Part shown: in pieces, positions 1,612 through 17,175 of the stretch | Numbering within the stretch: position 1 is the stretch's first letter | How the letters are laid out: each line of letters opens with the position of its first letter | Source: Candidatus Thorarchaeota archaeon | GTDB taxonomy: Archaea; Asgardarchaeota; Thorarchaeia; Thorarchaeales; Thorarchaeaceae | NCBI GenBank assembly: GCA_003345555.1 | Contig: PRDJ01000032.1 | Coordinates: forward strand, 1 to 17,175 | Direction of reading: 5' to 3' | DNA: 17,175 bases | Made by a program: the position numbers and the translations under genes | The notes under the pieces: generated by a model | The model's database searches: none | What the model saw: the letters and a program-made list of their open reading frames with translations, nothing else | Told to the model about the DNA's origin: nothing

Positions 1612-1663
1612 GCTTGCACGAGCTGTAATGTGTGTAATACAAATGAAACCTGCGTGAGAAATC

Positions 1664-2305
1664 CTACGAGTTTGGAACCTTCTGCCTCAACCGCTCCTTG
1701 ACCATCTTTATCCGGTAGAAATCCTCGCGTTCTCTCTCTTCGAGTGCGAGTTTCACAAAACGAACCGTGGCATCAAGACGTGGTATCACCACGGTCTCAA
1801 GAGCAGACACCCTTCTCTTGGTCCTTTCAATTTCCAAGGCGAGCCTCTTCACGCTGGACTCAATTTCTGCTAGGCGGGTAATGGTTCGCAGTGCATCTCG
1901 GAACTTTGAACTCATTAGGTCGAGCTTTGCGCTGGAGTCGGGTAACGAATAAGGTAGCGCAGGGTTCTCTTGATCGACTGATAATACTGGGACTCGAACG
2001 CCCATGGTGGACCTAGTTGAGATGGTGAGATCGGCGCGCATCTTGCTTGCATATGCGAATTCCACAACACGTGATGGTCCCATTATCATTTTGGCTTGCG
2101 TCAGTGCAGAATAGGCGTCTTTCAGAGTTGCATTCACCTTTTCGCGAGCATCCTTGATTTCTGCTATGGCGTTGAAGAACTCCATGATCAATGAATCGCG
2201 CTTCTCTCTCAATAACTTGTGACCGCGTTCGGCAAGAGCCATCCTGTTCTTGAGGGCCAACAGCTCCATTCGTGTCGTCTTTGTTCCGGGGAGAATCTTG
2301 CTCAT
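1664..2305 (-). CDS. atpD: A/V-type ATP synthase subunit D
   Basis: TRMELLALKNRMALAERGHKLLREKRDSL, STMGVRVP and EIERTKRRVSALETVVIPRL...LEEREREDFYRIK are hallmark subunit D motifs. GAGGA lies just upstream of the ATG. Confidence 0.95.
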   Translation of the reverse strand: MSKILPGTKTTRMELLALKNRMALAERGHKLLREKRDSLIMEFFNAIAEIKDAREKVNATLKDAYSALTQAKMIMGPSRVVEFAYASKMRADLTISTRSTMGVRVPVLSVDQENPALPYSLPDSSAKLDLMSSKFRDALRTITRLAEIESSVKRLALEIERTKRRVSALETVVIPRLDATVRFVKLALEEREREDFYRIKMVKERLRQKVPNS

Positions 2306-2383
2306 GCTTCCTCACACTCGTGATAGGTATTGGTCTCTGGCGAGATTGGTTGTAGGACGTTGCAATCTAGGAACCATCTGACC

Positions 2384-2662
2384 TCAGCTCAGTGTGAATA
2401 TGAAGGCACTGAGAAGAGCACCGAAGACACAAACAAGCAACCACTTGATGAGATGCCTGTCAATTCCGGCAGGATTCTCATCGATCTGACCAGTTACAGC
2501 CAGAGTCGCCAATGAAATGAACAGAAACGCGAACGGCAGCGAGACGGTCTTGCTTGTCAGCGAAGATTCGGTAAGTACTATCACTCCCGCAAGACCGCAG
2601 AGGATTAGGAATGAAAGGATCATAAGTGAATCCAGCACGCGTCGGATTCGTTCCACGTCCAT
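2384..2662 (-). CDS. Small integral membrane protein (about 3 TM helices), unknown function
   Basis: 92 aa with three hydrophobic stretches separated by short polar loops. Co-oriented with atpD and 78 bp upstream of it. Confidence 0.7.
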   Translation of the reverse strand: MDVERIRRVLDSLMILSFLILCGLAGVIVLTESSLTSKTVSLPFAFLFISLATLAVTGQIDENPAGIDRHLIKWLLVCVFGALLSAFIFTLS

Positions 2663-3008
2663 TTCGTCATTCTCCTATCATGGCCAGGCGCGCATCTCCT
2701 ATGCCTTATCTCCCGACCTCGCGGATGACCTGAAAAAGGTTATGCCTAACCATCGAGTGCCCTCTTGCTAGGATGATTGTATCACGGGATCTCAACTTGG
2801 CAGATTGCATGTGCTATGGAGAAGGCCCGTGAGAAGTGATCAATTTGATTCGTTGTCTTGATCGATAATCAACTCTCATCACAAGTCGAGGCTGTCGGAA
2901 GCATGGCTACCGCACATCTTATTACAAGGAGCGACATTCTTGTGGGTGGTATTACAAGCATTACTTATCATACCGACCCAGAAAGCGGCAGGAGAAGGCT
3001 TGAAGATC

Positions 3009-3983
3009 ATGACTATTGCCATCTATGAAAGCGCGCTGATACGTCACTTCAATACTAGAAAGGAGGCCTTGCGCGCCTGGGAAGAGAAGATCGGCTGTCG
3101 CTCGTCTCCTTTCAGAGGTTACAAGATGCCTGACTCCCGACTCTACATTGAGCAGCCAGACTTCTTGGATAGCATAGTCGACTTGGTACTAACGAATGAG
3201 CGGCATATATTCATCCGTGGACCAGTAGGCTCCGGGAAGAGTACGCTCATGCTACTAGCACTCAGAGATCTTCCGACGCTTATGGACCGGAGAGGCAATA
3301 GATTCGCAGTTGGATATGTGGGAATGAGTGGGCTGTATGAGAAGCAGATGGCTTCGGCAATCGCTGACGCTCTAAGAATCAAATACAAGAGATCATGGGA
3401 AACCAATGAAATCATAGAAGCGGTATCAGCTGAGTGCGTGAGAAGGTATATCGAAGAGAAGTCGAGAACTGCACTCTTTATTGAGGACGTAGCGGACAAC
3501 CAAGAAGCTGCATTTCACAAGATTCGATACTTGGCGGATCTTCCTACCGAAGAAATGAAGGAAAGCTACAAGGGTGCATTGGATGAGCCCATTGTGACTC
3601 TGATCATGAGTGGGACAATGGAATACTGGAATGCGATGCTGAACTTCCTTCCTCAGATAGCTGATAGGACAGAGCCCCTAGATGTTCCCGCGCTTGACAA
3701 TCAGAAAGCAAAGGAGTTCGTAGCAAGACGGATTGCCTACGCACAGGGAAAGATTGATGTCTTTGATAAAGACAGTTTTGAGATTCACCCGTTTACAGAC
3801 AAAGCAATAGAGTTGATCAACACGGCTGCAAAAGGAAATCCACGCGATATTCGTATGCTAGCACGCGGTTGTGAACAAGTTGCAGCTGATGAATTCAGCA
3901 AGAACGGAGACCCGACGGTCACTCAGGGTATTGCGAAACTTGTAACGGAGGCTTATGCCGCGTTATTGAAGGAGGTGCACTAG
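3009..3983 (+). CDS. ExeA/AAA_22-like AAA+ ATPase
   Basis: N-terminal IGCRSSPF...PDSRLY (ExeA-like GLxxxPF...PD), Walker A GPVGSGKST, Walker B region ALFIED, IMSGTME, PQIADR and lid FTDKAIELINTAAKGNPRDI. Start set at ATG 3009 (or TTG 3000) after GGAGAAGG, rather than 2940. Confidence 0.85.
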   Translation: MTIAIYESALIRHFNTRKEALRAWEEKIGCRSSPFRGYKMPDSRLYIEQPDFLDSIVDLVLTNERHIFIRGPVGSGKSTLMLLALRDLPTLMDRRGNRFAVGYVGMSGLYEKQMASAIADALRIKYKRSWETNEIIEAVSAECVRRYIEEKSRTALFIEDVADNQEAAFHKIRYLADLPTEEMKESYKGALDEPIVTLIMSGTMEYWNAMLNFLPQIADRTEPLDVPALDNQKAKEFVARRIAYAQGKIDVFDKDSFEIHPFTDKAIELINTAAKGNPRDIRMLARGCEQVAADEFSKNGDPTVTQGIAKLVTEAYAALLKEVH

Positions 3984-4304
3984 GTGAGCGTCCTCGGGAA
4001 ATATCGACGCGAGTCAGGAAGAGAGGAGGAACAGAAGACAGAGAGCGCAACGAAGGTCCGAGAGATTCAGAGAGCCGGTGCAGAGAAGAAGAGAGACGGG
4101 ACGGTCAGACAGGCAGAGGCTGTACCAAACAATGAACGAAGAAGCCCGATAGTTTCATTCTCGATACCAACTGATCTCAGGGCATGTCTTCAGGCAATAA
4201 GGAAGGACAAGTCAATCAACTTGAGCATGTGGGTCGAGAAGCGGCTCCGGGAAGCAATACTCCATGAGTTTCCGGGTATAGCTGAGAAATACTTGCAAGG
4301 CTGA
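3984..4304 (+). CDS. Small protein with charged, probably disordered N-terminus and C-terminal ribbon-helix-helix DNA-binding domain
   Basis: The GTG start directly abuts the ATPase TAG, with a strong RBS GGAGGTG at 3971-3977. SPIVSFSIPTDLRACLQAIRKDKSINLSMWVEKRLREAI fits the beta-alpha-alpha RHH pattern. Confidence 0.8.
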   Translation: MSVLGKYRRESGREEEQKTESATKVREIQRAGAEKKRDGTVRQAEAVPNNERRSPIVSFSIPTDLRACLQAIRKDKSINLSMWVEKRLREAILHEFPGIAEKYLQG

Positions 4305-4398
4305 TGTCTAGTGGATTCGGATGCCATACGTGTAATACAGAAGGCGACAGAATCATCTGGGAATTCCTCATGCGTTGGGCGGCGCTCTTGTTGAACGA

Positions 4399-5805
4399 TT
4401 AGCTTGTATCGCGAACACTAGGTCTACGGAATTGTGCATAGTCTGCTGCGCGGGCCAAACACAATGCGGCCAAGGACGGATCATCATAGCACGGTATTCT
4501 GTTTGACTCCAGAAGGTCCTTTCCCGGCTTACCAACACTACCAGCCAGCCATACTCCAACAACTGGCTTTTGGACTCCAGCAGCCCTGACGCCTTCGAGT
4601 AAGCCTTCGGCATGTTCGACTTGAGTCATACCCGCAAAGGTCGGTACGACACATATTTCCAAGAGCATGTCAACGCTTGAGTCCCTCAGTATCTGTTCAG
4701 TCGCAACACGATATTCCCATCTTGCCCCCGTTGCCAGCAAATCAATCGGATTGTCAACGGATGCCAACGGTGAGAAAGCGCTGCTTATCTCGTGACGAGT
4801 TTTCTGGGAAAGAGTAGACATCGTAAGACCCAGATCGGAGACCGCGTCAGCAGCTAGGACCCCTGCACCGCCGGTATTAGTAATAATACAAACATTACGA
4901 CCCTTCGGTAGAGGCTGGTAATCGAAGATCTTGCAGAGTTCGAAGAGTGTGTCCAATGTCGGGGCAGTAACACAACCAGCTTGTCGAAGCATCCCGGTGA
5001 AGACCGCTGTAGAAACGGCTAGTGACCCTGTGTGCGATTTCACAGCCGTGTTGCCACTTTCGCTTCGACCGCCCTTAAGCACTACAACGGGCTTCTCTCT
5101 CGAAGCATTGCGGAGCGATTCGTAGAGTTTTCGACCTTCTTTGATGCCTTCGATGTAGACTGCAATCACCGTGCTATCCGCGTCTTCCCTAAAATAATCC
5201 AAGACCTCGCCGATTTCGATGTCAGCTGCATTGCCAATGCTAGCGAACTTGCTTAGTCCTATCCTTCTGGCTTGTGTAGTGTAAATACTCGCGCCTCCAA
5301 GCGCTCCGCTCTGGGAAACAAATGCGATGTTTCCCCGTTCTGGCATGATTGTGAAAGTTCCATTGAACAGCCTGGTGTTCAAGACACCAACGCAGTTGGG
5401 ACCAATGAGCCGCACTTTCGAGTCTCTTGCGGCCCTCACAAGTGATTCTTCCAGCCTCGTGCCTTCCGAGCCGGTCTCGCTGAACCCGCCGGATACAACA
5501 ACGGCACAACGAGCACCCGACCTCCGGATATCGGGGATTAGTCCGGGACAGTTCTTGGCGTCTACTGCGACTATTACCAAGTCGACCGTCTCAGGCAGCT
5601 GAGTCAAGCTTGAGTATGTCTCAACGCCCATGACTCGGCCCGGAGTACGACTGATAGGATAAACCCGCACTGATGACTTTACGAGATTGGCCATTATACT
5701 GTTGCCAAGTTTCTTGGGATCGGCAGATGCGCCGACTAGGGCAACGGCATGAGGACTAAAGAACGGATCCATGTCTCTAGTTGAGTCTGTCCGACTGATG
5801 GCCAC
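4399..5805 (-). CDS. acdA: Acyl-CoA synthetase (ADP-forming), alpha subunit
   Basis: VALVGAS..PKKLG CoA-binding fold, RLIGPNCVG, SQSGALG, SIGNAAD, KGGRS, SHTGSLA (phospho-His), TNTGGAGVLAAD, NPIDL. Confidence 0.93.
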   Translation of the reverse strand: MAISRTDSTRDMDPFFSPHAVALVGASADPKKLGNSIMANLVKSSVRVYPISRTPGRVMGVETYSSLTQLPETVDLVIVAVDAKNCPGLIPDIRRSGARCAVVVSGGFSETGSEGTRLEESLVRAARDSKVRLIGPNCVGVLNTRLFNGTFTIMPERGNIAFVSQSGALGGASIYTTQARRIGLSKFASIGNAADIEIGEVLDYFREDADSTVIAVYIEGIKEGRKLYESLRNASREKPVVVLKGGRSESGNTAVKSHTGSLAVSTAVFTGMLRQAGCVTAPTLDTLFELCKIFDYQPLPKGRNVCIITNTGGAGVLAADAVSDLGLTMSTLSQKTRHEISSAFSPLASVDNPIDLLATGARWEYRVATEQILRDSSVDMLLEICVVPTFAGMTQVEHAEGLLEGVRAAGVQKPVVGVWLAGSVGKPGKDLLESNRIPCYDDPSLAALCLARAADYAQFRRPSVRDTS

Positions 5806-5871
5806 AATTCCACTCGTGAGATTATTCGATTTATGTGTAGCGTGTGGGGCGAGAGAAACAGAATGAGAAAC

Positions 5872-7131
5872 CTATTCCCAACGATACCATTCCGGCAAGC
5901 CATGAGGCATTTCTCGGTACAGGTTTCTTAGACGCCTTCGGTTTGGGCGTTCCGAATGCACGGTCTCAGCTACCAGGCGTCTTGCTTCCGGGCACTTCTT
6001 GGCTATGCTGTAGAGAGCTGACAATGATGCGTCTACTGATTCCTTCGATGCGGCCTCACATACTATGTCAATGAGCACAGATGCTGCGGATTCGTGATAA
6101 AAGCTACCAAGGGCAGCGATGGCCAACGTCGAGATACGAGTGTCCTCCAAACGAGCAAGCCTGCTGAGAGTTGGCACTGACTCCGGCGCTCTTACTACTA
6201 AATGATCGCCAGTGTTACGTATTAACTGCCGATAGCTGTCGCTCGACTCAGTTGTCTGGTACGAGGCAAGCGAGCTATAGAGCATCACATTCAATGTAGG
6301 AACGGACCATCTGCTGCCCGCCGCGCGCAGCACTTCCTCATCCTGATTGATGATTGATTCCAGCAATCTTCTGTAAAACTCATTGAGAGGCCTCTCATTT
6401 TCCGGACGAATCAACTCCGGCAATGGCTTTTCATACTCCGCTGGGGGTAAGCGCTCTTGTAGTGCGTGTAATACAAACATTACATCCCCATCTAGGTCTT
6501 CTGCATCGAGCCCCCTTACGCCAAGTTCGGACAAGACTATACGTCCTATTTCGGTAAGCCAAAGCTGACGTAGGTCCGCCATACCTCTGCTTACAAGGTC
6601 CCGGACTATTCTAGCCTCGGTCCTCCTTGCTTTCTCAAGCAGCAGCATCGTTTCGGGAGACCTTGTATCTGAGAAGTCGAAAAAGAGGGTGTCGCCTGAT
6701 GCGACTTGGTCTGCCGCGAGTTCCTCAGTTCGTTGTACAAATCGAGAAGTGGCCGACACTAGAGAGTCTTCGTCTTCCAGTTCGTCTAGAAGAATCATCG
6801 TGTCACAGTTAACCGGTTCAAGTCCGGTGCAAGAAAAGAGCTCAAACACCATCTCACGGTACTTCAATGGTTCTACGGGGGCACGGTAGCCAGCAGATCG
6901 CATTGGGATTGGATACTCCTCGTGAAACGATTTGCGAAGGCAATCTAGGGCACCTGACCAACCCTCTCTTTGCTCGATGATTGCCAAGAAATCCACCAAA
7001 TCGCGCCCTCTTCTTTCTGCTACAGCATTTGCGGTCTCCTGTATTCGCCCCTTGCTTTCAGCCTCCTTTGCACGTTCTGAACTGGCTTTCAGAATCCAGC
7101 TACGACCATCATTATCGGCCAATGTGACCAC
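5872..7131 (-). CDS. Hypothetical all-helical protein with C-terminal HEAT/PBS-like repeats
   Basis: 419-aa ORF with protein-like composition. VPTLSRLARLEDTRISTLAIAALGSF...SVDASLSALYSI resembles HEAT repeats. Start codon uncertain. Confidence 0.7.
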   Translation of the reverse strand: MVTLADNDGRSWILKASSERAKEAESKGRIQETANAVAERRGRDLVDFLAIIEQREGWSGALDCLRKSFHEEYPIPMRSAGYRAPVEPLKYREMVFELFSCTGLEPVNCDTMILLDELEDEDSLVSATSRFVQRTEELAADQVASGDTLFFDFSDTRSPETMLLLEKARRTEARIVRDLVSRGMADLRQLWLTEIGRIVLSELGVRGLDAEDLDGDVMFVLHALQERLPPAEYEKPLPELIRPENERPLNEFYRRLLESIINQDEEVLRAAGSRWSVPTLNVMLYSSLASYQTTESSDSYRQLIRNTGDHLVVRAPESVPTLSRLARLEDTRISTLAIAALGSFYHESAASVLIDIVCEAASKESVDASLSALYSIAKKCPEARRLVAETVHSERPNRRRLRNLYREMPHGLPEWYRWE

Positions 7132-7434
7132 TACGAAGACTCATTCGACCACAGTTCCCCGCCCAGACGAATAAGAGTTTGTCTCATAGCGCCCCCTACA
7201 CGCTGACCAAGCTGGATTGGGGGCTCTTTCTTGCCGAGAAATTGCGCAGGTCGAAGCGCCCCGCGCGGGAGTTGCACTACTTAAACATGTGGGACTCAAT
7301 CCCGATGGTGTACCTATGGGATTTTCTTGATGTCTAGATTGCTTGGTCCGCCCGAATCATAGCTGAACAGGAGATTATCGCCAGATGTTGCCGTTCTAGG
7401 ATTAGAACTATGTATCATTGTGCAAGATTCAACA

Positions 7435-7621
7435 TTGAGTGTGTCGTGCTAAAAGCACCGATCGAATAACACTTGGATTCGACTCCCATTGCCTATCAAA
7501 GGTATCTCTATCTCCTCAAATGCGCATACCTCTAGGGTGACCCGATGAGGGCTTTGGTCGCGTCGCTCGCACCAGTGTTCGTTCATGTCGGTTATGAGTA
7601 CTGATAGCATGACACACTCGA
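7435..7621 (+). ncRNA. Candidate structured RNA or fold-back element (long imperfect hairpin)
   Basis: 7435-7451 pairs with 7605-7621 over 17 bp with 2 G-U pairs. Nested helices: 7457-61/7588-92, 7464-67/7581-84, 7468-73/7574-79, 7495-7501/7552-58, 7514-18/7546-50. Identified by eye; no known family recognised. Confidence 0.45.
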
Positions 7622-7662
7622 GTTTGCTATTCTAATGAGCGCCTTTTCCTTCATTTGGCGCC

Positions 7663-8223
7663 TTATCTCGATGAAGAATCCTGCCTCTCCTTCTGACGCG
7701 ATAGGTCAGATTTCAAAACAAGAGGTGAAGCAAGGTTTTCTAGTGCCGCGACTATGGCTTTCTCAGCGATTCTATAGGTTTCAAGATCTTCGTTGCTGAG
7801 ATCGGCCTTTCCAGCTAATGCATCGCGGATGCGCCTGTAGTCGCCAATCTTCCCTGCGATTTCCTCGAAAGGTCTGAAAATGGTGAAATCAAAGAAACCT
7901 AGGTATGACAAGAGGAGCATAGTGTGGAGGCACTGGGTGACGTTCTTTCGCGCCTGCCTTAGAGTTCGGTTGAAAGAGCCGCGACTGACTCCTGTGACCT
8001 TGGGAGTTTTCCTAGATCGGAAGGAGGCTTTCTTGTCGTAAGGTATATGCATACCATAGCTGTCCTCGATGATTAAGTCAATCAAGAGCGTCTCTAGCTG
8101 AGCGCTTGTTAAACTAGAACCCCGCAATAGCGCCCTGAGAATCGGTTCCTTCAACACTTGGCTGGTACGAGAAGAAATGGTTCCTGTTCGTCTAGGCTTG
8201 ACTTGACCTGTTCTTGGTTCCAT
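7663..8223 (-). CDS. Conserved archaeal hypothetical protein, putative HTH DNA-binding protein
   Basis: The pattern LT..QLETLLID...KA..R...VSRGSFNRTLRQARKN resembles an uncharacterised archaeal family with a helix-turn-helix-like core. Start placed at ATG 8223; the ORF track gives 8241. Confidence 0.7.
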   Translation of the reverse strand: MEPRTGQVKPRRTGTISSRTSQVLKEPILRALLRGSSLTSAQLETLLIDLIIEDSYGMHIPYDKKASFRSRKTPKVTGVSRGSFNRTLRQARKNVTQCLHTMLLLSYLGFFDFTIFRPFEEIAGKIGDYRRIRDALAGKADLSNEDLETYRIAEKAIVAALENLASPLVLKSDLSRQKERQDSSSR

Positions 8224-8545
8224 ATGCCATAGTCCCTTCAAAGCTAATCTCTTACAAGTTACAATAGCTTGAGAATCGTGAAGCCACTAAATGCCTGTGA
8301 ATCCTTGGGGGAGAGTCACGACTGAACGTATTCGAGAGATGAGCTGTGACCCTCGGGCGGATACGCTTTTGTATACATGCACTACTTACAAATCGATGTA
8401 AAGCCTTTCTGGATGTGCAAGGTCTGGAGACAATCAGTAGATTGGATGCCTTTTCTGTGTGGAAAATAAACAGACGCCTAGTGCCAATCGTAGGCATCAT
8501 ATATCTCATGAGACAGCGTACAGAAGAACGAAGGGAGGGTTCGTG

Positions 8546-8962
8546 CTACCTAGTCGGCAGTGTCCACTCCGAGCCTGGGCGCACGGGCACGAAACTAAGG
8601 ATGATATTCCCTCTAATGTCGTCAAACTTGAAAACGCCGAGCATTCGAGTGCCGGTCGGGGTATCCCATCCGAGCCACCCTCTGCTGATATAGTACTGGA
8701 ACACATCTCTGCAGTGCTTTCTGACCTGCAAAAATAGGTTCCGATAGTGTCTTCGCTGCGAAGGCCGAATGCCCCACCGCCCCAGAATGAAACGATTTGC
8801 CAGACCATTGCTCGAGACTAGGATAGGCCTCCTTCCTATAGGCTCAGTAAGGATAGAGTTGCGGAGAGCGTCTTTCAGGCACTCCGGTATCGAAGCCAAA
8901 ATAGAGGGCGTCGGTTCTGGTTCTCCCAGGAAGGTTGACTCTGATTCAATCGTCGGACACAT
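8546..8962 (-). CDS. Hypothetical protein, possible winged-helix fold
   Basis: 138 aa. Apparent helix-strand-helix-helix (SSNGLANRFI; YRNLFLQVRKHCRDVFQYYISRG) followed by beta-rich segments. More protein-like than the overlapping ORFs. Confidence 0.6.
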   Translation of the reverse strand: MCPTIESESTFLGEPEPTPSILASIPECLKDALRNSILTEPIGRRPILVSSNGLANRFILGRWGIRPSQRRHYRNLFLQVRKHCRDVFQYYISRGWLGWDTPTGTRMLGVFKFDDIRGNIILSFVPVRPGSEWTLPTR

Positions 8963-9145
8963 ATCCTCAATCGTTGATTAGTCCTGTACAAGACTTATGA
9001 GCGCCTACATAATGGATCCGTCAGGTTGTGTCTTCTTCTCTTTGCGGATGTATTATCGTACATACTTGTAATACGACCGTACCACCAAGCCTTCTACCGG
9101 TGGGAAGGCCGGTTTGCCAGTTCACTGACTTAATATCACAAAGCG

Positions 9146-11542
9146 GTGCGATATGCGAACAGGTCTGAGGACTTGAAGCAAAGGGCAGACATCCATATCA
9201 TCGGTGTCGTTCAGGGTGTCGGTTTTCGGCCTTTTGTCTACGGCCTCGCGAAGGAGTTGAACCTAGTTGGGTATGTCCTGAACCTGGGAAATGCCGGAGT
9301 ACAGCTAGTGGTGGAGGGCCGCCGAGGAGACATCGAGGGCCTAATCGCCGAAGTGAAATCTAGGGCACCAGCCGTATCGCGGATAGACGGAATCAATGTC
9401 GAATGGAGCGATGCAACGGGTGAGTTCAACGAGTTCAGAATTGAGAGATCCGTCGACGTGAGAAAAGAAACATCTGGTCTCGACATGCCCCCAGACATCG
9501 CTATGTGTGAGGACTGTGTGGCTGATTTGCTGAGATCCGGCTCTCGTTGGCACCTGTATCCTTTTACCTCATGTTCTATCTGTGGTCCTAGATTCTCGAC
9601 AATCACAAGTCTTCCTTACGACCGCCCAAATACGACCATGACGGATTTTCCTTTATGCAATACGTGTAATACGGAGTACAACAACCCGACCGATCGTCGA
9701 TACTATGCGCAGACCATCGCATGTCCAGAGTGTGGGCCAATCTATCGATTACTGGATCCATTAGGTAGGCTAGTAGAAGACTCTGAACCAATCGCCACAG
9801 CCGCAAAGCTCGTGGAGAACGGAAAGATAGGAGCATTTCAGGGAATATCAGGCACACATTTGGTCACAATGACCAGCAAACCAACAGCGATTCAGGAACT
9901 CAGGGAGAGAAAAAGAAGATTGCGCAGGCCATTCGCGATAATGGTCAGAGACCTAGAGACCCTGAGAAATCAGTTTCTCGTGTCGTCACAAGAGATAGAT
10001 CTGTTGACTTCTTGGCGAAGACCAATTGTGTTGGTCAAGAAGAGGAAAGGTTCGAAAGAATCTGACAAAGATTCTTCGAGGATTACACGAGAGATACCCG
10101 CTGAGTCTCTGGAGTTGATATCTCCCGGTTTAGATACGGTCGGTGTTATGCTGCCTTACTCAGGCCTACATCATCTCTTGTTTCACTACATGGATGAACC
10201 AGGACTGGTGATGACAAGTGCCAATCCGACGGGCTTGCCCATGTATGTTAACCCTGAGGTCATCATTTCTGAGCTGAAGGGGATAGCTGACCTCTTCCTG
10301 GTCCATAATAGGAGAATCGAGCAAAGAGCAGACGATTCTGTGATCAAACTCTTGCTGAACGGCCCCATCTTCATTCGGAGGGCACGCGGCTACGTTCCAG
10401 AACCAATTATAGTAAATGGCCTATCAAGAGAAGCTAAGTTGATTGCAGTTGGGCCAGAGGAAAGAGCGACTGGAGCAGTTCTTAGTAGAGGCAAGGTCTA
10501 CCAGACTCAGCACATAGGGGATACGAACAGAGCAGAGAACATCGATTTTCTCTGGGATGCATTGAGTCACCTCATGAACATCCTTGCAGTAACGAGACTC
10601 GATGCTGTTGCCTGCGACCTTCATCCGGAATTTCTTAGCAGTGAATTCGCAAGGAATTTGGCGGCTGAACGAAAGGTGCCCGTGCTTCCTGTCCAACACC
10701 ATCATGCTCATCTTGCGGCCCTGCTTGCAGACTCGGGTCTCCCTGCTGATACCACTATTGCGTGTATTACAATCGACGGCTTTGGATATGCTCTTGGCGG
10801 TGAGTCGTGGGGAGGAGACGTCTTAGTTGGCAATGCCGTCGAAGCCACAAGAGCAGGGGGATTGAAGCGGCAAGCCTATTCAGGCGGCGACTTGTCCGCT
10901 ACTTACAGCGCAAGAGCTCTGCTAGGAATACTCGGTGATTCATTTGACGTTAGTGAGATTTCTCATTTGATAGGAAAGGCACAGATCGCGCCAGGTGTTG
11001 TTGCTACTGGGAGCAACCTATCAATGCTTTCTGAAATGCGACAGCGACGTGTGAATGTCTTGTACAGCACGAGTGCAGGCAGGTTTCTTGATGCTGTGTC
11101 AGCTGCCCTTGGTCTGTGCTTCGAGAACAGCTACGACGGAGAATGTCCGATGCAGTTGGAGGCGGTCGCTCGCGAAACAGGCCTCAGGATCAATAAGGAA
11201 CATAGTCTTGAGAAATCGGTCGTGCTGGATAGCACAGAAGCTATTCGAGAGATTCTGCGGCTTAGGAGACAGGGCGTTCCAACAGAGGAAGTCGCTTATG
11301 CAGCGCAATGGTACCTAGGGGAGTCGCTGGCGACTATTGCGTGCATGGTCTCCATGGAGAGGGGGATTGGGTCTGTAGGAGTCTCTGGTGGAGTTGCAGT
11401 TAACCGGATTGTTACGCAGGCTATCTCTACGACGGTGGAAAAGGAAGGGCTCAAGTTATTGGTTCATAGAAATGTGCCACCTGGTGACGGAGGAATCTCT
11501 GTTGGTCAGATTGTTGTGTCCGCATCGAATCTGAATCAGTGA
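9146..11542 (+). CDS. hypF: [NiFe]-hydrogenase maturation carbamoyltransferase HypF
   Basis: Acylphosphatase domain GVVQGVGFRPFVY, zinc fingers CEDC/CSICGPR and CNTC/CPECGP, YrdC-like TSAN, QHHHAH, DGFG, GGVAVN, PPGDGGISVGQ. The true start may be TTG 9173, after GAGG. Confidence 0.97.
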   Translation: MRYANRSEDLKQRADIHIIGVVQGVGFRPFVYGLAKELNLVGYVLNLGNAGVQLVVEGRRGDIEGLIAEVKSRAPAVSRIDGINVEWSDATGEFNEFRIERSVDVRKETSGLDMPPDIAMCEDCVADLLRSGSRWHLYPFTSCSICGPRFSTITSLPYDRPNTTMTDFPLCNTCNTEYNNPTDRRYYAQTIACPECGPIYRLLDPLGRLVEDSEPIATAAKLVENGKIGAFQGISGTHLVTMTSKPTAIQELRERKRRLRRPFAIMVRDLETLRNQFLVSSQEIDLLTSWRRPIVLVKKRKGSKESDKDSSRITREIPAESLELISPGLDTVGVMLPYSGLHHLLFHYMDEPGLVMTSANPTGLPMYVNPEVIISELKGIADLFLVHNRRIEQRADDSVIKLLLNGPIFIRRARGYVPEPIIVNGLSREAKLIAVGPEERATGAVLSRGKVYQTQHIGDTNRAENIDFLWDALSHLMNILAVTRLDAVACDLHPEFLSSEFARNLAAERKVPVLPVQHHHAHLAALLADSGLPADTTIACITIDGFGYALGGESWGGDVLVGNAVEATRAGGLKRQAYSGGDLSATYSARALLGILGDSFDVSEISHLIGKAQIAPGVVATGSNLSMLSEMRQRRVNVLYSTSAGRFLDAVSAALGLCFENSYDGECPMQLEAVARETGLRINKEHSLEKSVVLDSTEAIREILRLRRQGVPTEEVAYAAQWYLGESLATIACMVSMERGIGSVGVSGGVAVNRIVTQAISTTVEKEGLKLLVHRNVPPGDGGISVGQIVVSASNLNQ

Positions 11543-11588
11543 TCAAATGGAGTGATGCAGCCCATTCTGTCGGATTCGTTGGGAAATA

Positions 11589-12215
11589 TCATAGTCGGAG
11601 CATTCCACCCACCTGTGCAAAGCCGAGGTTGAATGCTGCAGAGTTCACTTGCTGAAATTGCTCCGGTACTGTATCGTACAAAGATTGTAAGGCAGAATCT
11701 TTGGTTACTGGTACCAGCTCGGTGCTGATTATTGCACCTAACATGACCATGTTTAGTGAATTCGGACTACCGGCCTTCTCTGCAAGCTCCATCGCATCGA
11801 ACTCAATCACGTTAGTGGTGAATCTCTTCGTTGCACTCATTATCGCGTCGTGATCCGGATATGTTCCTTGGTCCATTGAGACAGCTACTGGCAGTAGGAT
11901 ATGAGAACTCATGATTACACATCCATTAGGGGCGACCAGATGGATTTCACGCAGAGTCTCGATTGGTTCGAAACCTACCACGAGATGCGCGGTGCCTGGA
12001 TCAATGATAGGACCCTTTGCATGTTCGCCTATTCTAATTGTGCAAAGAACGTGGCCACCACGTTGGGCCATCCCGTGTATCTCGCCAACTCGGACATTAT
12101 GACCGTCCAGCATGGCTGCTTTTGCTAACACTTCTGCAAGAGTTAGAACGCCTTGGCCGCCTACCCCGCTAAGAGCCACATTCGTGACATCGACTGTATT
12201 ACGAACAATACGCAT
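11589..12215 (-). CDS. iorB: Indolepyruvate:ferredoxin oxidoreductase beta subunit
   Basis: GVGGQGVLT, GEIHGMAQRGGHV, GFEPIETLR, NMVMLGA. Starts 3 nt after the iorA stop, with GGGAGG at the end of iorA. Confidence 0.93.
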   Translation of the reverse strand: MRIVRNTVDVTNVALSGVGGQGVLTLAEVLAKAAMLDGHNVRVGEIHGMAQRGGHVLCTIRIGEHAKGPIIDPGTAHLVVGFEPIETLREIHLVAPNGCVIMSSHILLPVAVSMDQGTYPDHDAIMSATKRFTTNVIEFDAMELAEKAGSPNSLNMVMLGAIISTELVPVTKDSALQSLYDTVPEQFQQVNSAAFNLGFAQVGGMLRL

Positions 12216-12218
12216 TCT

Positions 12219-14108
12219 TCAGTCCTCCCGGTTTATGGCACCTTTAGGACATACAGCCGCACAGATACCACACTCGTTGCACAGAGTCTCATCAACCACG
12301 GCCTTGTTTGTCTCAGAATCAAAATACATCGCCGGACATGAAAGCCGATGAAGACACCGTTTGCAGGCGTTACATAGATCTGAGTTGACTCGATAGGGAT
12401 GCGGCGGAGTTCCGGTTTGTTGCCTATCGATGGCTGCAAGAAGTGCACATGGTTCTCTGGACACCAACACGGCCGGTTGTTTGTTTTCTCTCACCCATAC
12501 AACCATCTCTCGGATCTCTGACACCAAGGTGGCCATGGAATCAAACGGTCGTACCATTCTTACATAGTTCACACCTAAGCCCTTGCACACATCAACTATG
12601 TCAATCGGACTAACCTTCTCTTGCATCCCTGTAAGGCCCGTACCAGGATGTGGCTGCTGTCCTGTCATCGCTGTAGTACGATTGTCAAGCACGACCACGC
12701 TGATTGGGTGTCTGTTGTACACCGCGTCAACTATGCCCGGAAGGCCTGAAGCGAAAAACGTGCTATCGCCAATTGTGGCTACGACGTCCTGATCAGTAAC
12801 CCGTGCTATTCCACAGGCAGTAGTGATTGACGATCCCATGTCAAACAGTATGTCTGCTGTCTCGAGAGGGGGAGCAATGCTCAGCGTATAGCAGCCTATG
12901 TCAGATGGGTAAATCGCCTTTCCCCTAGTAGCCACTCGAATAGCATAGTACGTCGCCCTATGGGGACAGCCAGCACACAGCAGTGGTGGTCGGGACGGTA
13001 ATGAGGACAATTCCTCAGCTTTCGAGTCAATTTGCTGCCAGTTAATAGGTGTATTACGATTCAGAATCTTGGCCAATCCCTCTATCACTGTTCTGGGGGT
13101 GTATTCGTAAGTCCTAGGAAAGTAACCTTGTTCCTTGCCCAAAATTGTGACTACTATGTGGTTCAGTTGTGCGACCCGGCGCACCTGGGTTTCCAAGAAG
13201 GGTTCCAACTCCTCTACCACTACCACTTTCGTGTGCTCTTGCAAGAAGTCGGAGATCTTCCGTTCTGGCAGAGGGTGCGTCATTCCCAGTTTGAGTATCT
13301 CGGCCTTTAGACCGAGGGTTGAGACTGCCTCAATGGCATAGTTGAAGGCCACGCCACTCGTGATTATGCCAAGCTCGCCTTCACCGATTCTATAATTCAG
13401 GGATGTCTCCTCAGATATTCTTCTGGCCTTCTCGATTTGCTGTAGTAACCAAGGATGCCGCTTGTATGCTACCGACGGAATGGGAACGAATCTGAATGGA
13501 TCTTTGTCGAATTTCACAGTTGAAACACGGTCTCGCATAGGACCTAGCTCTACTGGTGCTCTCGTGTGACTGACACGAGTAGTCGTACGGTAGAGAACGG
13601 GGAGCTCGAGTTTCTCGGATATATCAAAGGCCTCAATGAGCATGGATTTGGCTTCGACAGGATCAGAAGGTTCCAACATTGGTGTGTTGGCCATGAGAGC
13701 ATAGTAGCGCGAGTCGTTCTCGTTTTGCGAGCTCCACATACTTGGGTCGTCTGCGACCACCACCACCATGCCTCCGCGCACTCCTACGTATGCTAGCGAG
13801 AGGAACGGGTCGGCCGCTACGTTTAGTCCCGGGCCTTTACAGGCGATCATTGACCTCACTCCAGCGACCGCGGCAGCACCAGCAACCTCCATTGCGACCT
13901 TTTCGTTTGTACTGAATTCGAAATAGAAATCGGGAATACGTGTAGCTATAGCTGTCAGATTGTTGCCGATTTCACTGCTCGGCGTCCCAGGATATACTGC
14001 CACCAGACGTACCCCTGCTTCCAACACGCCTCGAGCTATTGCTTCGTTGCCCAGAAGCAGTATCCTCTTCCCCGGGTTATCCTCAAGCAGTTCAGTAGGT
14101 TTGGTCAA
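12219..14108 (-). CDS. iorA: Indolepyruvate:ferredoxin oxidoreductase alpha subunit
   Basis: LLGNEAIARG, NEKVA, GLNVAADP, DDPSMWSSQNE, CAGCPHR, DIGCY, IGDSTF, LDNRTTAMTGQQP and a C-terminal 2x[4Fe-4S] motif. Recognisable IorA sequence begins near TTG 14108 (629 aa); the extra 97 codons in the ORF track up to 14399 are not IorA-like. Confidence 0.95.
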   Translation of the reverse strand: MTKPTELLEDNPGKRILLLGNEAIARGVLEAGVRLVAVYPGTPSSEIGNNLTAIATRIPDFYFEFSTNEKVAMEVAGAAAVAGVRSMIACKGPGLNVAADPFLSLAYVGVRGGMVVVVADDPSMWSSQNENDSRYYALMANTPMLEPSDPVEAKSMLIEAFDISEKLELPVLYRTTTRVSHTRAPVELGPMRDRVSTVKFDKDPFRFVPIPSVAYKRHPWLLQQIEKARRISEETSLNYRIGEGELGIITSGVAFNYAIEAVSTLGLKAEILKLGMTHPLPERKISDFLQEHTKVVVVEELEPFLETQVRRVAQLNHIVVTILGKEQGYFPRTYEYTPRTVIEGLAKILNRNTPINWQQIDSKAEELSSLPSRPPLLCAGCPHRATYYAIRVATRGKAIYPSDIGCYTLSIAPPLETADILFDMGSSITTACGIARVTDQDVVATIGDSTFFASGLPGIVDAVYNRHPISVVVLDNRTTAMTGQQPHPGTGLTGMQEKVSPIDIVDVCKGLGVNYVRMVRPFDSMATLVSEIREMVVWVRENKQPAVLVSREPCALLAAIDRQQTGTPPHPYRVNSDLCNACKRCLHRLSCPAMYFDSETNKAVVDETLCNECGICAAVCPKGAINRED

Positions 14109-14207
14109 GTTATCATGCGCCCTATGGAGAACCGGTCCCAGAAGAGCTTGGACAGGTGATTGTGTATCTATCTTATGGTATAGAGAACAAAGACGCACAC
14201 AAGGATC

Positions 14208-14219
14208 CAAACAAAAACA
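14208..14219 (-). terminator. U-rich tract (TGTTTTTGTTTG on minus strand), copy 1 of an exact 12-bp direct repeat
   Basis: CAAACAAAAACA occurs at 14208-14219 and 14380-14391. Oligo-U tracts act as archaeal terminators; function here is inferred. Confidence 0.35.
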
Positions 14220-14249
14220 AACTGAGGAAGACCACGGAGAGCTGGAGAC

Positions 14250-14267
14250 TTGGAACACGTGTTCCAA
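14250..14267. repeat. 18-bp perfect palindrome, copy 1 (TTGGAACACGTGTTCCAA)
   Basis: Exact self-complementary 18-mer, preceded by CTGGAG. Confidence 0.9.
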
Positions 14268-14342
14268 CCACTCGACCAACTGATCGGCGAGTCGGGGTCG
14301 GCTGGAGCTTCTAGTTACTCCCCTCTGCTTCCACTGGAGCAT

Positions 14343-14360
14343 ATGGAACAGATGTTCTAA
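14343..14360. repeat. Palindrome copy 2, degenerate centre (ATGGAACAGATGTTCTAA)
   Basis: GGAACA and TGTTC half-sites conserved with the central 2 bp changed; also preceded by CTGGAG. Confidence 0.8.
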
Positions 14361-14379
14361 CGCGATAATAATACTACTA

Positions 14380-14391
14380 CAAACAAAAACA
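14380..14391 (-). terminator. U-rich tract, copy 2 of the 12-bp direct repeat
   Basis: Identical to 14208-14219; lies downstream of the 14509-14799 gene on the minus strand. Confidence 0.35.
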
Positions 14392-14400
14392 GATGACATT

Positions 14401-14424
14401 CCGCTTCAGAAGCGGCTATTTATA
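14401..14424 (-). promoter_or_regulatory. Candidate TATA box (TATAAATA, 14424-14417) immediately followed by palindrome CCGCTTC-N-GAAGCGG (14401-14415)
   Basis: Near-consensus archaeal TATA on the minus strand with CGATAAG upstream, and a 7-1-7 perfect inverted repeat abutting it. Confidence 0.5.
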
Positions 14425-14487
14425 CTTATCGACCCACATCTAACCAATATGCATTCTCCTTCGACCGGAAATGATGGGGCCTGGGAG

Positions 14488-14505
14488 TTGGAACACGTGT
14501 TCTAA
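14488..14505. repeat. Palindrome copy 3 (TTGGAACACGTGTTCTAA)
   Basis: One mismatch from copy 1; separated by 3 bp from the stop codon of the 14509-14799 gene; preceded by CTGGGAG. Confidence 0.9.
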
Positions 14506-14508
14506 ATC

Positions 14509-14799
14509 CTAATCTAATTGTCTGCTTACCTCGAATGTTTTGGTGATCAGGATGTCTTGGTACGAGTGGAACAGTGCTTCGAATGCTCCTCTGTATTCCG
14601 AAGGCACCAGTATTGCAGATGCAGTGACTGCAACAGAGCCTGAGCACTCTTCTAGTAAGCCTGGCTTTCGCTTCTCTCTATACCCTCCTTTCGTTCTCCA
14701 AGAATACATGAACCCATAGAGCTCCTTTGTAAAAGAGACTCTTCTAGCGTTGGTCTCGCGCGCCCGTTTGCAGTCGTACACATATAGGTAGTAAACCAT
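14509..14799 (-). CDS. Small basic protein with putative Cas2/VapD-like ferredoxin fold
   Basis: The N-terminal strand ending in YD (MVYYLYVYD), helix NARRVSFTKELYG, GLL...ASAILVP, helix and terminal strand TFEV mirror Cas2/VapD topology. No other cas genes in the window. Confidence 0.6.
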   Translation of the reverse strand: MVYYLYVYDCKRARETNARRVSFTKELYGFMYSWRTKGGYREKRKPGLLEECSGSVAVTASAILVPSEYRGAFEALFHSYQDILITKTFEVSRQLD

Positions 14800-14814
14800 T
14801 GCAATCTCAAGCGC

Positions 14815-14832
14815 TTAGAACACGTGTTCCTC
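14815..14832. repeat. Palindrome copy 4 (TTAGAACACGTGTTCCTC), inverted relative to copy 3
   Basis: 14815-14830 is the exact reverse complement of 14490-14505; it lies 15 bp upstream of the ATG at 14799. Confidence 0.9.
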
Positions 14833-14958
14833 TTTCAGGGCGAGTATTACAAAGCCGTGTATATCAAAAGCTTAAAGCCACAACAACTGGTCGCTAGCGG
14901 CGTCCGGCGACAGCAGCTATGAGCGTCAGCACAGCGATTCACACGAGGAGGGATCTCC

Positions 14959-16272
14959 GTGAATGTAATCGGCCTGAGAAAAGAGGAGAAACCTTTCGAA
15001 ACACGCGTTCCGGTAATACCAGAACATGTTGACATGCTCAAGAGCAGACATAATATCAACTTCATAGTCGAGCCGAGTGAAAACCGTGCATTCAACGCCG
15101 AAGAGTACATGGAAGCCAAGGCTCAGATACTGCCCTTGAAGGGTAGTTCGGCACAAGTTGTTCTAGGAATAAAAGAGATGCCCGACGATTTCTTTGAGCG
15201 TGGCAAGGCATACGTCTTCTTCAGTCATACCATAAAAGGACAACCGCACAACATGCCGATGCTAAGAAGCATCATGACTGCAAAGGCGACACTCATAGAC
15301 TACGAACGAATACTAGATGACAAGGGCAAGAGACTCATTTACTTTGGAAACTGGGCCGGAATGGCTGGTCTCTCCGACACACTCTATATTCTGGGACAGC
15401 GTCTCGAAGTTGAACACATGAGACCAAACCCGTTCAAGCATATGAAGCGCACACTCGAGTGCAAGGATCTTTCCGAGCTAAAGGACTCCTTCAGAGCATT
15501 AGCCAAACAAATAGAGATCGAGGGATTACCAAAGCGACTACGTCCCTTTGTCATTGGCTTCGCCGGATACGGAAACGTCTCTCGAGGAGCCCAAGAGCTG
15601 TTTGATTTGCTTCCTCACGAATCGGTTCAACCAGATGAGCTGGCGCAGACAACTTCACAGCAGAATCTATTGTACAAGTCCGTCTTCAGAGAGGAACACA
15701 TGGTAGAGCCTATCGACCCGACTGCTAAGTTCAATCTCCAGGATTACTATAGCTATGGCAAGGGGAAATACAAGCCCGTCTTCGAACGCTACGTCCCATA
15801 CCTCACGGTTCTACTGAACTGCATTTACTGGTCTGACAAGTATCCCCGATTGGTATCAAAAGACTTCATCAAGGCACACTGGAAGGACAAGCACCGAAGG
15901 CTCCGTGTCATAGGCGACATTTCCTGTGATATCGAAGGTGCCATTGAGTTCACACTTCAGGCTACCAACCCTGCAGAACCGGCTTTCACTTACCTCATCA
16001 AGAAAGACCGAATTACCTCCGGTGTATCTGGAGAAGGACCAGTTGTGATGGCAGTAGATAATCTGCCGTCCGAGCTCCCAAGAGAATCGTCAACCTCTTT
16101 CAGTGCATCTCTTCTCGACTATATACCAATACTGGCAAATGCAGATTTCACCGTGCCTTTCGACCAACTTCACCTACCCCGAGAATTGAAGGATGCAGTG
16201 GTCGTATACCAAGGCAATCTAACCGAGAACTACGAATACCTTCGAAAGTACACAGAACAACTAGGAGGATAG
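14959..16272 (+). CDS. Lysine-ketoglutarate reductase / saccharopine dehydrogenase (lysine-forming) family; homologue of the N-terminal LKR domain of AASS
   Basis: GLRKEEKPFETRVP, GIKE, FFSHTIKGQPHNMPML, LIDYE, FGNWAGMAG, GYGNVSRGAQE, IGDISCD, AVDNLPSELPRESS. RBS GAGGAGG at 14945-14951. Confidence 0.9.
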   Translation: MNVIGLRKEEKPFETRVPVIPEHVDMLKSRHNINFIVEPSENRAFNAEEYMEAKAQILPLKGSSAQVVLGIKEMPDDFFERGKAYVFFSHTIKGQPHNMPMLRSIMTAKATLIDYERILDDKGKRLIYFGNWAGMAGLSDTLYILGQRLEVEHMRPNPFKHMKRTLECKDLSELKDSFRALAKQIEIEGLPKRLRPFVIGFAGYGNVSRGAQELFDLLPHESVQPDELAQTTSQQNLLYKSVFREEHMVEPIDPTAKFNLQDYYSYGKGKYKPVFERYVPYLTVLLNCIYWSDKYPRLVSKDFIKAHWKDKHRRLRVIGDISCDIEGAIEFTLQATNPAEPAFTYLIKKDRITSGVSGEGPVVMAVDNLPSELPRESSTSFSASLLDYIPILANADFTVPFDQLHLPRELKDAVVVYQGNLTENYEYLRKYTEQLGG

Positions 16273-16275
16273 AAC

Positions 16276-17175
16276 ATGAAGACCGTACTCTGTCTAGGCG
16301 CAGGCTTGGTGTCTCGACCCTACATCGAATACATATCAAAACACGGATTCCATCTGATCATAGCCAGTAGAACCAAGAGCAAAATAGAGGCCATGACTCA
16401 GGCTTTCAGGAACGCCGAAGCTGTTTCCTTCGACATTAACACAGACGACAAGTTGCTTGACGATCTAACTTTCAAGGCCGACTTGGTCTGTTCCTTACTA
16501 CCGTACGTCTACCACGTCAAAGCCGCCAAGATTGCAGTCAAGCATCGCAAACCCTTCTGCACCACTTCTTACATATCTGACGAAATGAAAGCATTAAACA
16601 AGCAGGCAACTGATGCCGGTATTCCTCTTCTAAATGAGTGCGGCGTCGATCCAGGTATTGACCACATGAGTGCTATGAAAATCATAAACCACATTCATCA
16701 GAACGAAGGCAAGATAACATCCTTCATCTCTCACACAGGAGGCCTCCCTGCACCTGATGCAAACAACAACCCGTTTGGGTACAAAGTCTCTTGGACACCT
16801 AGAGGAGTCTTGCTTGCAGGTCGAAACGACGCTCATTTCGTCAGAAATAGGAAAGAAGTGGTTATTCCTGGGCCAGAGCTCTTTGACAGCTACCAAATAA
16901 TCGAAATACCGGGAGCAGGTAAGTTCGAGGTTTATCCAAACCGTGACAGCGTTTCATATATCGACATCTACGGTATTCCTGAAACAGAGACAATGCTGAG
17001 AGGCACTCTCAGGAATATAGGCTGGTGCTCTACTCTCAAGAAAATAGCTGACCTGGGTCTCCTAAGTATCGAAGAGCAGCCCTTCGCCAATCTGACTTAC
17101 CGGCAGATGATCAGCAAGCTGATTTCTTCCGAGGATGCTGACATTGTTCGTGCTGTGGCGTCAACCCTCAAGCTT
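16276..17175 (+). CDS. Saccharopine dehydrogenase (glutamate-forming); homologue of the C-terminal SDH domain of AASS (3' truncated by window)
   Basis: Manual translation: MKTVLCLGAGLVSRP...SLLPYVYH...TTSY...NECGVDPGIDHMSAM...GGLPAP...NPFGYKVSWTPRGVL...YPNRDS...RGTLR. ATG is 3 nt after the upstream stop, RBS GGAGGA at 16264-16269. Open to the window end, so missing from the ORF track. Confidence 0.93.
   Translation, partial: MKTVLCLGAGLVSRPYIEYISKHGFHLIIASRTKSKIEAMTQAFRNAEAVSFDINTDDKLLDDLTFKADLVCSLLPYVYHVKAAKIAVKHRKPFCTTSYISDEMKALNKQATDAGIPLLNECGVDPGIDHMSAMKIINHIHQNEGKITSFISHTGGLPAPDANNNPFGYKVSWTPRGVLLAGRNDAHFVRNRKEVVIPGPELFDSYQIIEIPGAGKFEVYPNRDSVSYIDIYGIPETETMLRGTLRNIGWCSTLKKIADLGLLSIEEQPFANLTYRQMISKLISSEDADIVRAVASTLKL

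Follow-up and report, generated by a model that had tools for sequence, protein, structure and literature searches.

What four copies of an 18-bp palindrome do in one 850-bp gap (14109-14958) is the question raised by contig PRDJ01000032.1 of a Candidatus Thorarchaeota archaeon (assembly GCA_003345555.1). The window analysed here is this entire 17-kb contig (17,175 bp); the host genome is 2.28 Mb in size and 93% complete. The gap also holds two inverted origin recognition boxes (ORBs) around an A+T-rich stretch, and a small gene for a 96-residue protein that lies between two of the palindromes (Table 1). On balance we think it probable that the locus is a chromosomal replication origin of Thorarchaeota, with palindromes P1, P3 and P4 as conserved fixtures that would be bound by a dimeric protein. 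An initial annotation of the same DNA, which had described the palindromes, missed this predicted ORB-type origin with its embedded gene bracketed by the sites.

The palindromes and the predicted origin

The string GAAC-N4-GTTC occurs four times in the window (14253, 14346, 14491 and 14818); shuffled windows held 0.29 copies on average and none of 200 shuffles reached four. The initial annotation had placed the four 18-mers exactly where we find them, and was also right that three of them have the 12-mer GAACACGTGTTC in common and that the spacing is irregular (93, 145 and 327 bp). The assembly artefact that it had named as a possibility can be excluded. In each of three public wetland-metagenome runs (two studies) a contig covers 13900-15100 as a single unbroken piece; these contigs carry four substitutions, none of them in the palindromes, and no insertions or deletions. 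Because three independent metagenome assemblies carry the palindromes, these cannot be a product of assembly. In a further run (X7) the same region is covered by three short low-depth pieces. The four copies are of unequal quality. P2 has four mismatches to the consensus and is not a palindrome in the same-genus genome G003; judged by its sequence, it is a weak, lineage-specific copy beside ORB-A. A conserved TAATAC word lies upstream of P4, and P4 presumably overlaps the promoter of the small gene.

Both boxes match CTTCCAGTGGAAACGAAAGGGGT, the ORB consensus for archaea given in Table 2 of PMC4153887, and they stand inverted around an A+T-rich element. The stretch between them (~119-120 bp) is 63% A+T against 50% for the window, and a conserved word, CTATTTATAC, sits within it at 14416. 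When the orthologous gaps of seven relatives were compared side by side, each was found to contain inverted canonical ORBs around an A+T-rich stretch. ORB-A is kept at the orthologous place in relatives, the counterpart of ORB-B in G003 is canonical, and the corresponding spacer is far richer in A+T among the relatives. The strict pattern TCCA-N2-GGAA-N4-6-GGGG matches twice in the whole host genome, at ORB-A and at C10:82768, and in five whole genomes a 17-nt ORB word was matched almost solely at these loci. Across 62 palindrome loci, 20 ORB-like matches fell within 300 bp of the palindrome (41.7 kb) and one in the other 183 kb. A closed relative of 1.42 Mb (G026) has exactly two ORB words, inverted and 214 bp apart (C1:622.6 kb), which lie next to the small gene and orc1 and enclose an A+T-rich core. 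Orc1/Cdc6 would be expected to bind such boxes, and the origin to fire from them.

A map of 27 genomes gives the order palindrome, small gene, palindrome, reverse ORB, A+T-rich core, forward ORB, palindrome, iorA, and the full architecture is present in about 25 Thorarchaeota genomes. As far as the aligned genomes reveal, the placement of the sites is itself conserved. The equivalent of P4 lies 15-33 bp upstream of the small-gene ATG in at least nine Thorarchaeota genomes; that of P3 lies between 27 bp before and 60 bp after the small-gene stop codon in nearly all Thorarchaeota genomes as well as in families f2 and f7; that of P1 is found beyond the forward ORB, at a distance of 8-70 bp, in about 25 genomes.

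Adjacency of orc1/cdc6 is usual, although not obligatory, for archaeal origins. At the orthologous locus it is found in families f2, f3 and f7. In f2 the order is orc1, a 166-residue winged-helix gene, a 97-residue gene, palindrome, ORB, A+T-rich core, ORB, palindrome, iorA. In f3 a 98-residue gene is followed by ORB, A+T-rich core, ORB, two winged-helix genes and orc1, and the palindrome is absent. In f7 a 95-residue gene, the ORBs and the palindromes are located ~1.4 kb from the winged-helix gene and orc1. In the family to which the window belongs, the winged-helix gene sits ~3 kb from the small gene, past a pair of genes for a lysine-ketoglutarate reductase (LKR) and a saccharopine dehydrogenase (SDH) inserted between the two. 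It was not found in the host genome; we attribute this to an assembly gap, since by synteny its expected place is ~1 kb past the contig end. From these arrangements we read the locus as an ancestral orc1-linked origin at which the Thorarchaeaceae appear to have lost the orc1 adjacency and gained the LKR-SDH insertion.

Several observations weigh against an origin with the palindrome as a fixture. In the host genome and its family orc1/cdc6 does not adjoin the locus; the two orc1 genes of the host are carried by contigs C50 and C30, where no ORB is in their vicinity, and G003 has no orc1 within 5 kb of the locus. ORB-B is degenerate here and the core is just 63% A+T. Palindrome and ORB are separated by anything between 8 and 70 bp, more variation than a rigid composite site would be expected to show. 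Strand skew gives no usable support: in the window the GC skew passes through zero near 12 kb, a stretch of 17 kb being too short to judge, and in twenty 20-kb samples of G026 it is noisy (-0.07 to +0.10) and follows no replichore pattern. The palindrome is missing from family f3, in which the small gene, the winged-helix gene and the ORB pair are all present; it is thus dispensable for that type of origin, and neither protein predicts the site. Copies of the palindrome away from the origin are promoter-proximal, which an ordinary regulator would explain equally well.

Eukaryotes have their closest known relatives among the Asgard archaea. Our literature search found no paper on ORB elements or on the cis-structure of the origin of any Asgard archaeon, no publication describing a palindrome-bracketed origin and, in an archaeal context, no paper with GAACACGTGTTC. 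In the published closed Odinarchaeum genome the origin was set at position +1 from a local GC-skew minimum (PMC9246712). The present locus offers a concrete, conserved candidate for an Asgard origin, made up of two ORBs, sites of a second class and a small protein encoded within the origin, and its components can be tested with oligonucleotides and recombinant proteins, with no need of culture.

Table 1 Features of the predicted origin and its flanking genes (window positions)
Feature	Position	Strand	Description
iorA	12219..14108	minus	indolepyruvate:ferredoxin oxidoreductase alpha subunit; Pfam POR_N, TPP_enzyme_C, Fer4
Palindrome P1 (copy 1)	14250..14267	no strand	perfect TTGGAACACGTGTTCCAA; iorA-side outer bracket, 52 bp outside ORB-A
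ORB-A	14320..14339	minus	minus strand reads CTCCAGTGGAAGCAGAGGGG
A+T-rich stretch between ORBs	14340..14459		candidate DNA-unwinding element
Palindrome P2 (copy 2)	14343..14360	no strand	ATGGAACAGATGTTCTAA; weak, abuts ORB-A
ORB-B	14460..14479	plus	degenerate TTCGACCGGAAATGATGGGG; inverted relative to ORB-A
Palindrome P3 (copy 3)	14488..14505		3 nt past stop codon of 96-residue gene, 8 nt from ORB-B
Origin-embedded 96-residue gene	14509..14799	minus	product of isoelectric point 9.1, predicted ferredoxin-like fold
Palindrome P4 (copy 4)	14815..14832		-33 to -16 from ATG of 96-residue gene
LKR-like gene	14959..16272	plus	Pfam AlaDh_PNT_N, AlaDh_PNT_C
SDH gene	from 16276		Pfam Sacchrp_dh

The 18-bp site and its copies elsewhere

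Alignment of 122 distinct sites from ~30 genomes gave the half-site TTRGAACAY. Variation is concentrated at the edge (position 3, where G occurs in just 53% of half-sites) and at the centre (position 9), as had been claimed from the window copies. The changes at position 3 are one-sided in 76 cases, two-sided and complementary in 16, and two-sided but non-complementary in three. Position 8, which would be a loop base if the palindrome acted as RNA, is invariant in 244 of 244 half-sites. One-sided change together with an invariant position 8 points to independent DNA half-sites and not to an RNA stem. The pattern agrees with recognition by a dimer of a DNA site with two-fold symmetry, the centres of the half-sites being one helical turn apart, and a protein presumably binds there. 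The earlier reading of the repeats as operators of a dimeric regulator is therefore partly right: two-fold symmetry, independent half-sites and promoter-proximal copies all agree with it.

The initial annotation had further proposed a polar unit of 26-28 bp, on account of a CTG-purine block beside each palindrome. The block does indeed accompany all four window copies, but it is not a general feature. Among 121 sites from ~30 genomes, 12 had a CTGRR no more than 15 nt away, where 12.4 would be expected, and no flanking position carries more than 0.22 bits. The polar unit was accordingly rejected; as no flank is conserved, the element is 18 bp in length and without polarity. The CTGGAG beside P2 is part of a different element, the dyad of ORB-A.

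With one mismatch allowed, 22 of the 24 family genomes have the motif, the number of copies per genome being 1-11; a reversed-sequence control gave ~0. The motif is present in f7 too, and f2 has a variant of the palindrome centred on CATATG.

Each genome has 1-8 further places with the 18-bp site. Of the 44 copies that do not belong to the two ORB loci, 28 fall between genes, against an expected 12% (the same gene calls make 88% of the sequence coding); for this enrichment P = 6e-16, with the reservation that the genomes are related and not independent. Of the 28 intergenic copies, 24 face the start of a gene 0-201 bp away. This promoter-proximal spread is plain from the gene maps, and some positions are kept across genera: the divergent gap between the methionyl-tRNA synthetase (MetRS) gene and a ubiquitin-like gene, the region upstream of an oligopeptide ABC ATPase gene, and a histone-deacetylase-family gene. 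Other neighbours include glutamate dehydrogenase, thioredoxin, a LysW-like protein and F420 ligase. Adjoining genes are for the most part metabolic or without known function; copies at the Fpg and PolX genes are intragenic.

The host genome has three further copies. One is in the MetRS/ubiquitin-like gap (C17:25705). Another, with one mismatch, lies within the coding sequence of an Fpg/Nei DNA glycosylase (C57:58282) and falls on the same codons in G003. The third belongs to the second ORB locus of the genome, at C10:82629-82790 (L001:1499-1660), where a perfect palindrome, ~100 bp of A+T-rich DNA and a near-consensus ORB CTCCACTGGAAACGGTGGGGT follow one another. This ORB, at 82768, is 139 bp from the palindrome and upstream of a gene for a protein of 140-166 residues without family. 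At loci of this type the palindrome is kept in nine genomes, with an ORB ~140 bp off in six of the nine. To judge from its layout, the C10 locus may serve as another origin or as a promoter under Orc1 control.

The 96-residue protein, the candidate binders and rival explanations

The small gene is single-copy in 23 of the 24 family genomes and is present in f2, f3 and f7. All 59 homologues of its product come from Thorarchaeota or other Asgard metagenome-assembled genomes, and HMMER run over the whole library described a narrow family with 10 representatives below 1e-10. No family match was obtained in Pfam or NCBIfam, and the profile gave only chance-level matches against PDB sequences (E 0.14 or worse). 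The AlphaFold2 model (predicted local distance difference test, pLDDT, 93) adopts a ferredoxin-like fold with a basic beta-hairpin. As a homodimer the protein scored 0.56 against 0.21 for the best control, with pLDDT of at least 87 and agreement between runs in 100% of contacts; of 30 proteins solved as pairs, 20 attained this mark, as did 1 of 23 solved in single-chain form. The models thus support a predicted homodimer, for which a memory effect from Cas2-like structures is possible.

Structural searches place the model among many others of its fold. Foldseek returned nothing at E up to 0.001, VIA-align a generic list of ferredoxin-like proteins, and ESM Atlas unnamed archaeal proteins and NTP_transf_2 fusions, which we regard as leads only. 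Superposition on Cas2 gives template modelling (TM) scores of 0.52-0.60 with a root-mean-square deviation of ~3 Å and Foldseek E-values of 0.07-0.1; Z is 6.0-6.4 for Cas2 and VapD versus up to 8.0 for unrelated folds (top TM1266). We did not assign the protein as a Cas2, given that there is no sequence match and that the fold scores are no better than those of other ferredoxin-like proteins.

The leading, still tentative, candidate for the protein that binds the palindrome is this origin-encoded basic protein. The origin-linked winged-helix protein is second, and distinctly less likely; the remaining odds go to something else. The distributions are nested, in that all genomes with the palindrome have the small gene and all genomes with the small gene have the winged-helix gene, so co-occurrence does not separate the two candidates.

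If the locus is an origin with bound borders, a dimeric sequence-specific protein would occupy the palindromes and so mark both borders of the ORB cassette, sitting at the same time at the promoter and at the 3′ end of the embedded gene. Such a protein could modulate initiation or helicase loading. Alternatively it might insulate the origin against transcription of the neighbouring genes, which is conceivable because P4 overlaps the small-gene promoter region, P3 comes just after the stop codon of this gene and P1 stands ahead of iorA. Elsewhere in the genome, the few copies close to promoters would be places where this protein serves as a transcription factor. Taken as a joint claim, that palindrome and 96-residue homodimer form an undescribed Asgard origin-control module, in which the basic homodimer binds both cassette borders, its own promoter and a handful of metabolic promoters, and gates Orc1/MCM or insulates the origin so as to couple the start of replication to the state of the cell, is a possibility we put forward with some doubt.

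The main rival is a purely regulatory reading, in which the palindrome is an ordinary transcription-factor operator, perhaps of an autoregulated 96-residue protein, that controls the small gene, iorAB, LKR-SDH and a few others, its place at the origin being incidental. We consider this rather unlikely, although it accounts for a good deal. A P4-type site stands at -33 to -16 of the small-gene ATG in at least nine genomes; the neighbours of the sites lean to amino-acid metabolism (indolepyruvate:ferredoxin oxidoreductase, LKR/SDH, glutamate dehydrogenase, the LysW-like protein, the oligopeptide ABC ATPase and an M20 peptidase); and f3 origins work without the palindrome. An operator would not be expected to stay just outside both ORBs in f1, f2 and f7 despite different flanking genes, nor to recur at the second ORB locus of the genome, and in f2 both copies hug the ORB pair while none lies upstream of the operon of the winged-helix and small genes. 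Recombination sites had also been suggested; that a site-specific recombinase or exchange between short inverted repeats acts at the palindromes to invert the cassette of ORB, A+T-rich core and ORB is improbable, and the idea keeps a little life through one observation. The cassette between the palindromes, unequal spacers included, is flipped in the host and G003 relative to the same-genus genome G001 and to G022, with alignment scores for 14250-14505 in the host or G003 against G001 of 43-46 flipped and 18-21 direct. The 6-bp arms and symmetric 6-bp centre would in principle allow recombination in either orientation, and the flip at or near the palindromes could reflect recombination or be a by-product of inverted repeats. 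However, the window has no recombinase gene, lone copies occupy conserved promoter positions far from any partner, and the flips are rare on an evolutionary scale and possible with any inverted repeat.

Still less probable is the proposal that transcribed palindromes form RNA hairpins as targets for binding or cleavage by the Cas2/VapD-like protein encoded alongside, in a miniature repeat-nuclease cassette. Its attraction lies in the protein, which in its model shares with Cas2 and VapD the beta-alpha-beta-beta-alpha-beta fold, a length of ~90 residues, an invariant Asp ending strand 1 and a predicted homodimer interface that includes the C-terminal strand and strand 1; moreover, P3 would fall in the 3′ untranslated region of its gene. 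The sites themselves do not behave as hairpins: changes are overwhelmingly one-sided and not compensatory, the 'loop' base is invariant, and the common variant in the sense orientation of the small gene gives A.C, not G.U. Rfam returned no match for 13900-15100 at E up to 1. Nor is there a CRISPR-like array here, the spacing being irregular, with no cas genes (cas1 included) in the window and no Cas2 match in Pfam or NCBIfam; many ferredoxin-like folds score as well as Cas2 or better, and the small gene is syntenic and single-copy, not mobile. The idea is unsupported. We find scarcely credible an operator of a known regulator, whether the LexA-type SOS box (GAAC-N4-GTTC) or the NrpR nitrogen operator (GGAA-N6-TTCC). 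The core strings do coincide: the core is identical to that of the SOS box of Firmicutes and Actinobacteria, a Staphylococcus SOS review shows the 12-mer as a LexA box, and two copies lie inside DNA-repair genes. The conserved 18-bp site of this archaeal host is nevertheless longer than either box, GGAA is not kept (see position 3 above), and the copies in Fpg and PolX are within coding sequence, not upstream of it. Searches of the 93%-complete genome, in both of which controls gave matches, returned no NrpR domain (PF01995) and, for LexA_DNA_bind (PF01726), a single match of 21.1 bits, under the cut-off of 23.7. Inspection of the genes beside the motif matches in the genome and its relatives, which the initial annotation had named as the check for an SOS-like regulon, yielded mostly metabolic genes and no repair-gene promoters, and its LexA comparison falls with this.

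Neighbouring genes and known systems

On one side of the gap lie iorB and iorA, both on the minus strand. The start of iorA is probably the TTG at 14108 and not the ATG at 14399, since orthologues are 629-630 residues in length and the upstream extension is not conserved. The 96-codon open frame that prolongs iorA across P1, ORB-A and P2 (14109-14399) may lead gene callers to annotate a 726-residue IorA that runs through half of the predicted origin and so masks it. On the other side, the split LKR-like and SDH genes (14959-17175) are collinear with the halves of the eukaryotic bifunctional enzyme. Two conserved words are found in the margins of the gap: TACCATAAGATAGATACA (TACCRTAAGACTGATA in relatives) at 14163-14180 on the minus strand, between P1 and iorA, and the family-conserved GCTTTAAGCTTT at 14865-14880, between P4 and the LKR gene. 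Both may be promoter elements. The heptamer GTAWTAC occurs 11 times in the window (1634-15013) against 91 times genome-wide, with 0.69 expected in the window (Poisson P = 2e-10); the copies are roughly 1-2.6 kb apart, within and between genes, and the one at 14844 lies just upstream of P4. At 2940-4304 a gene for an AAA+ ATPase (347 residues, weak AAA_22 match) is directly followed by one for a 106-residue protein. This ATPase is 30% identical (E = 2e-47) to an origin-side ATPase of f7; their small partners have no detectable similarity.

Among known origins, the locus is closest in layout to the ORB type exemplified by Sulfolobus/Saccharolobus oriC1, Pyrococcus oriC and the predicted oriC of Methanomassiliicoccales, which likewise have inverted consensus ORBs around an A+T-rich spacer, and the f2, f3 and f7 loci share with them the adjoining orc1/cdc6. 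It differs in the missing orc1/cdc6 adjacency, the embedded 96-residue gene and the bracketing 18-bp palindrome, three features that we did not find in descriptions of ORB-type origins. One factor serving several origin sites and also promoter sites is familiar from bacteria, in CtrA at Caulobacter Cori and the Spo0A boxes in Bacillus oriC. This analogy is one of logic only, the domain of life, the initiator and the motifs all being different.

The nearest precedent, by analogy, is found at Sulfolobus oriC1, in the ucm motif and its protein UBP. Small and basic, UBP binds ucm, is needed for origin function and has hundreds of other sites (PMC12141716, Dhanaraju et al. 2025). Like ucm, the palindrome would be an accessory, non-ORB motif of an origin, in this case placed at its edge, and it recurs at promoters. 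The likeness does not extend to sequence: the motifs are unrelated, and the profile of the 96-residue protein found no UBP match among PDB sequences at E up to 10. Whereas ucm is 11 bp in length, lies between the ORBs and is bound by UBP as a monomer (PMC12141716), the palindrome has 18 bp, lies outside the ORBs and, by its symmetry, suggests a dimer. Should the binder of the palindrome modulate initiation, a new accessory factor for origins would be at hand, similar in kind to the UBP of Sulfolobus, and with it an example of a single archaeal factor joining the borders of an origin to gene promoters.

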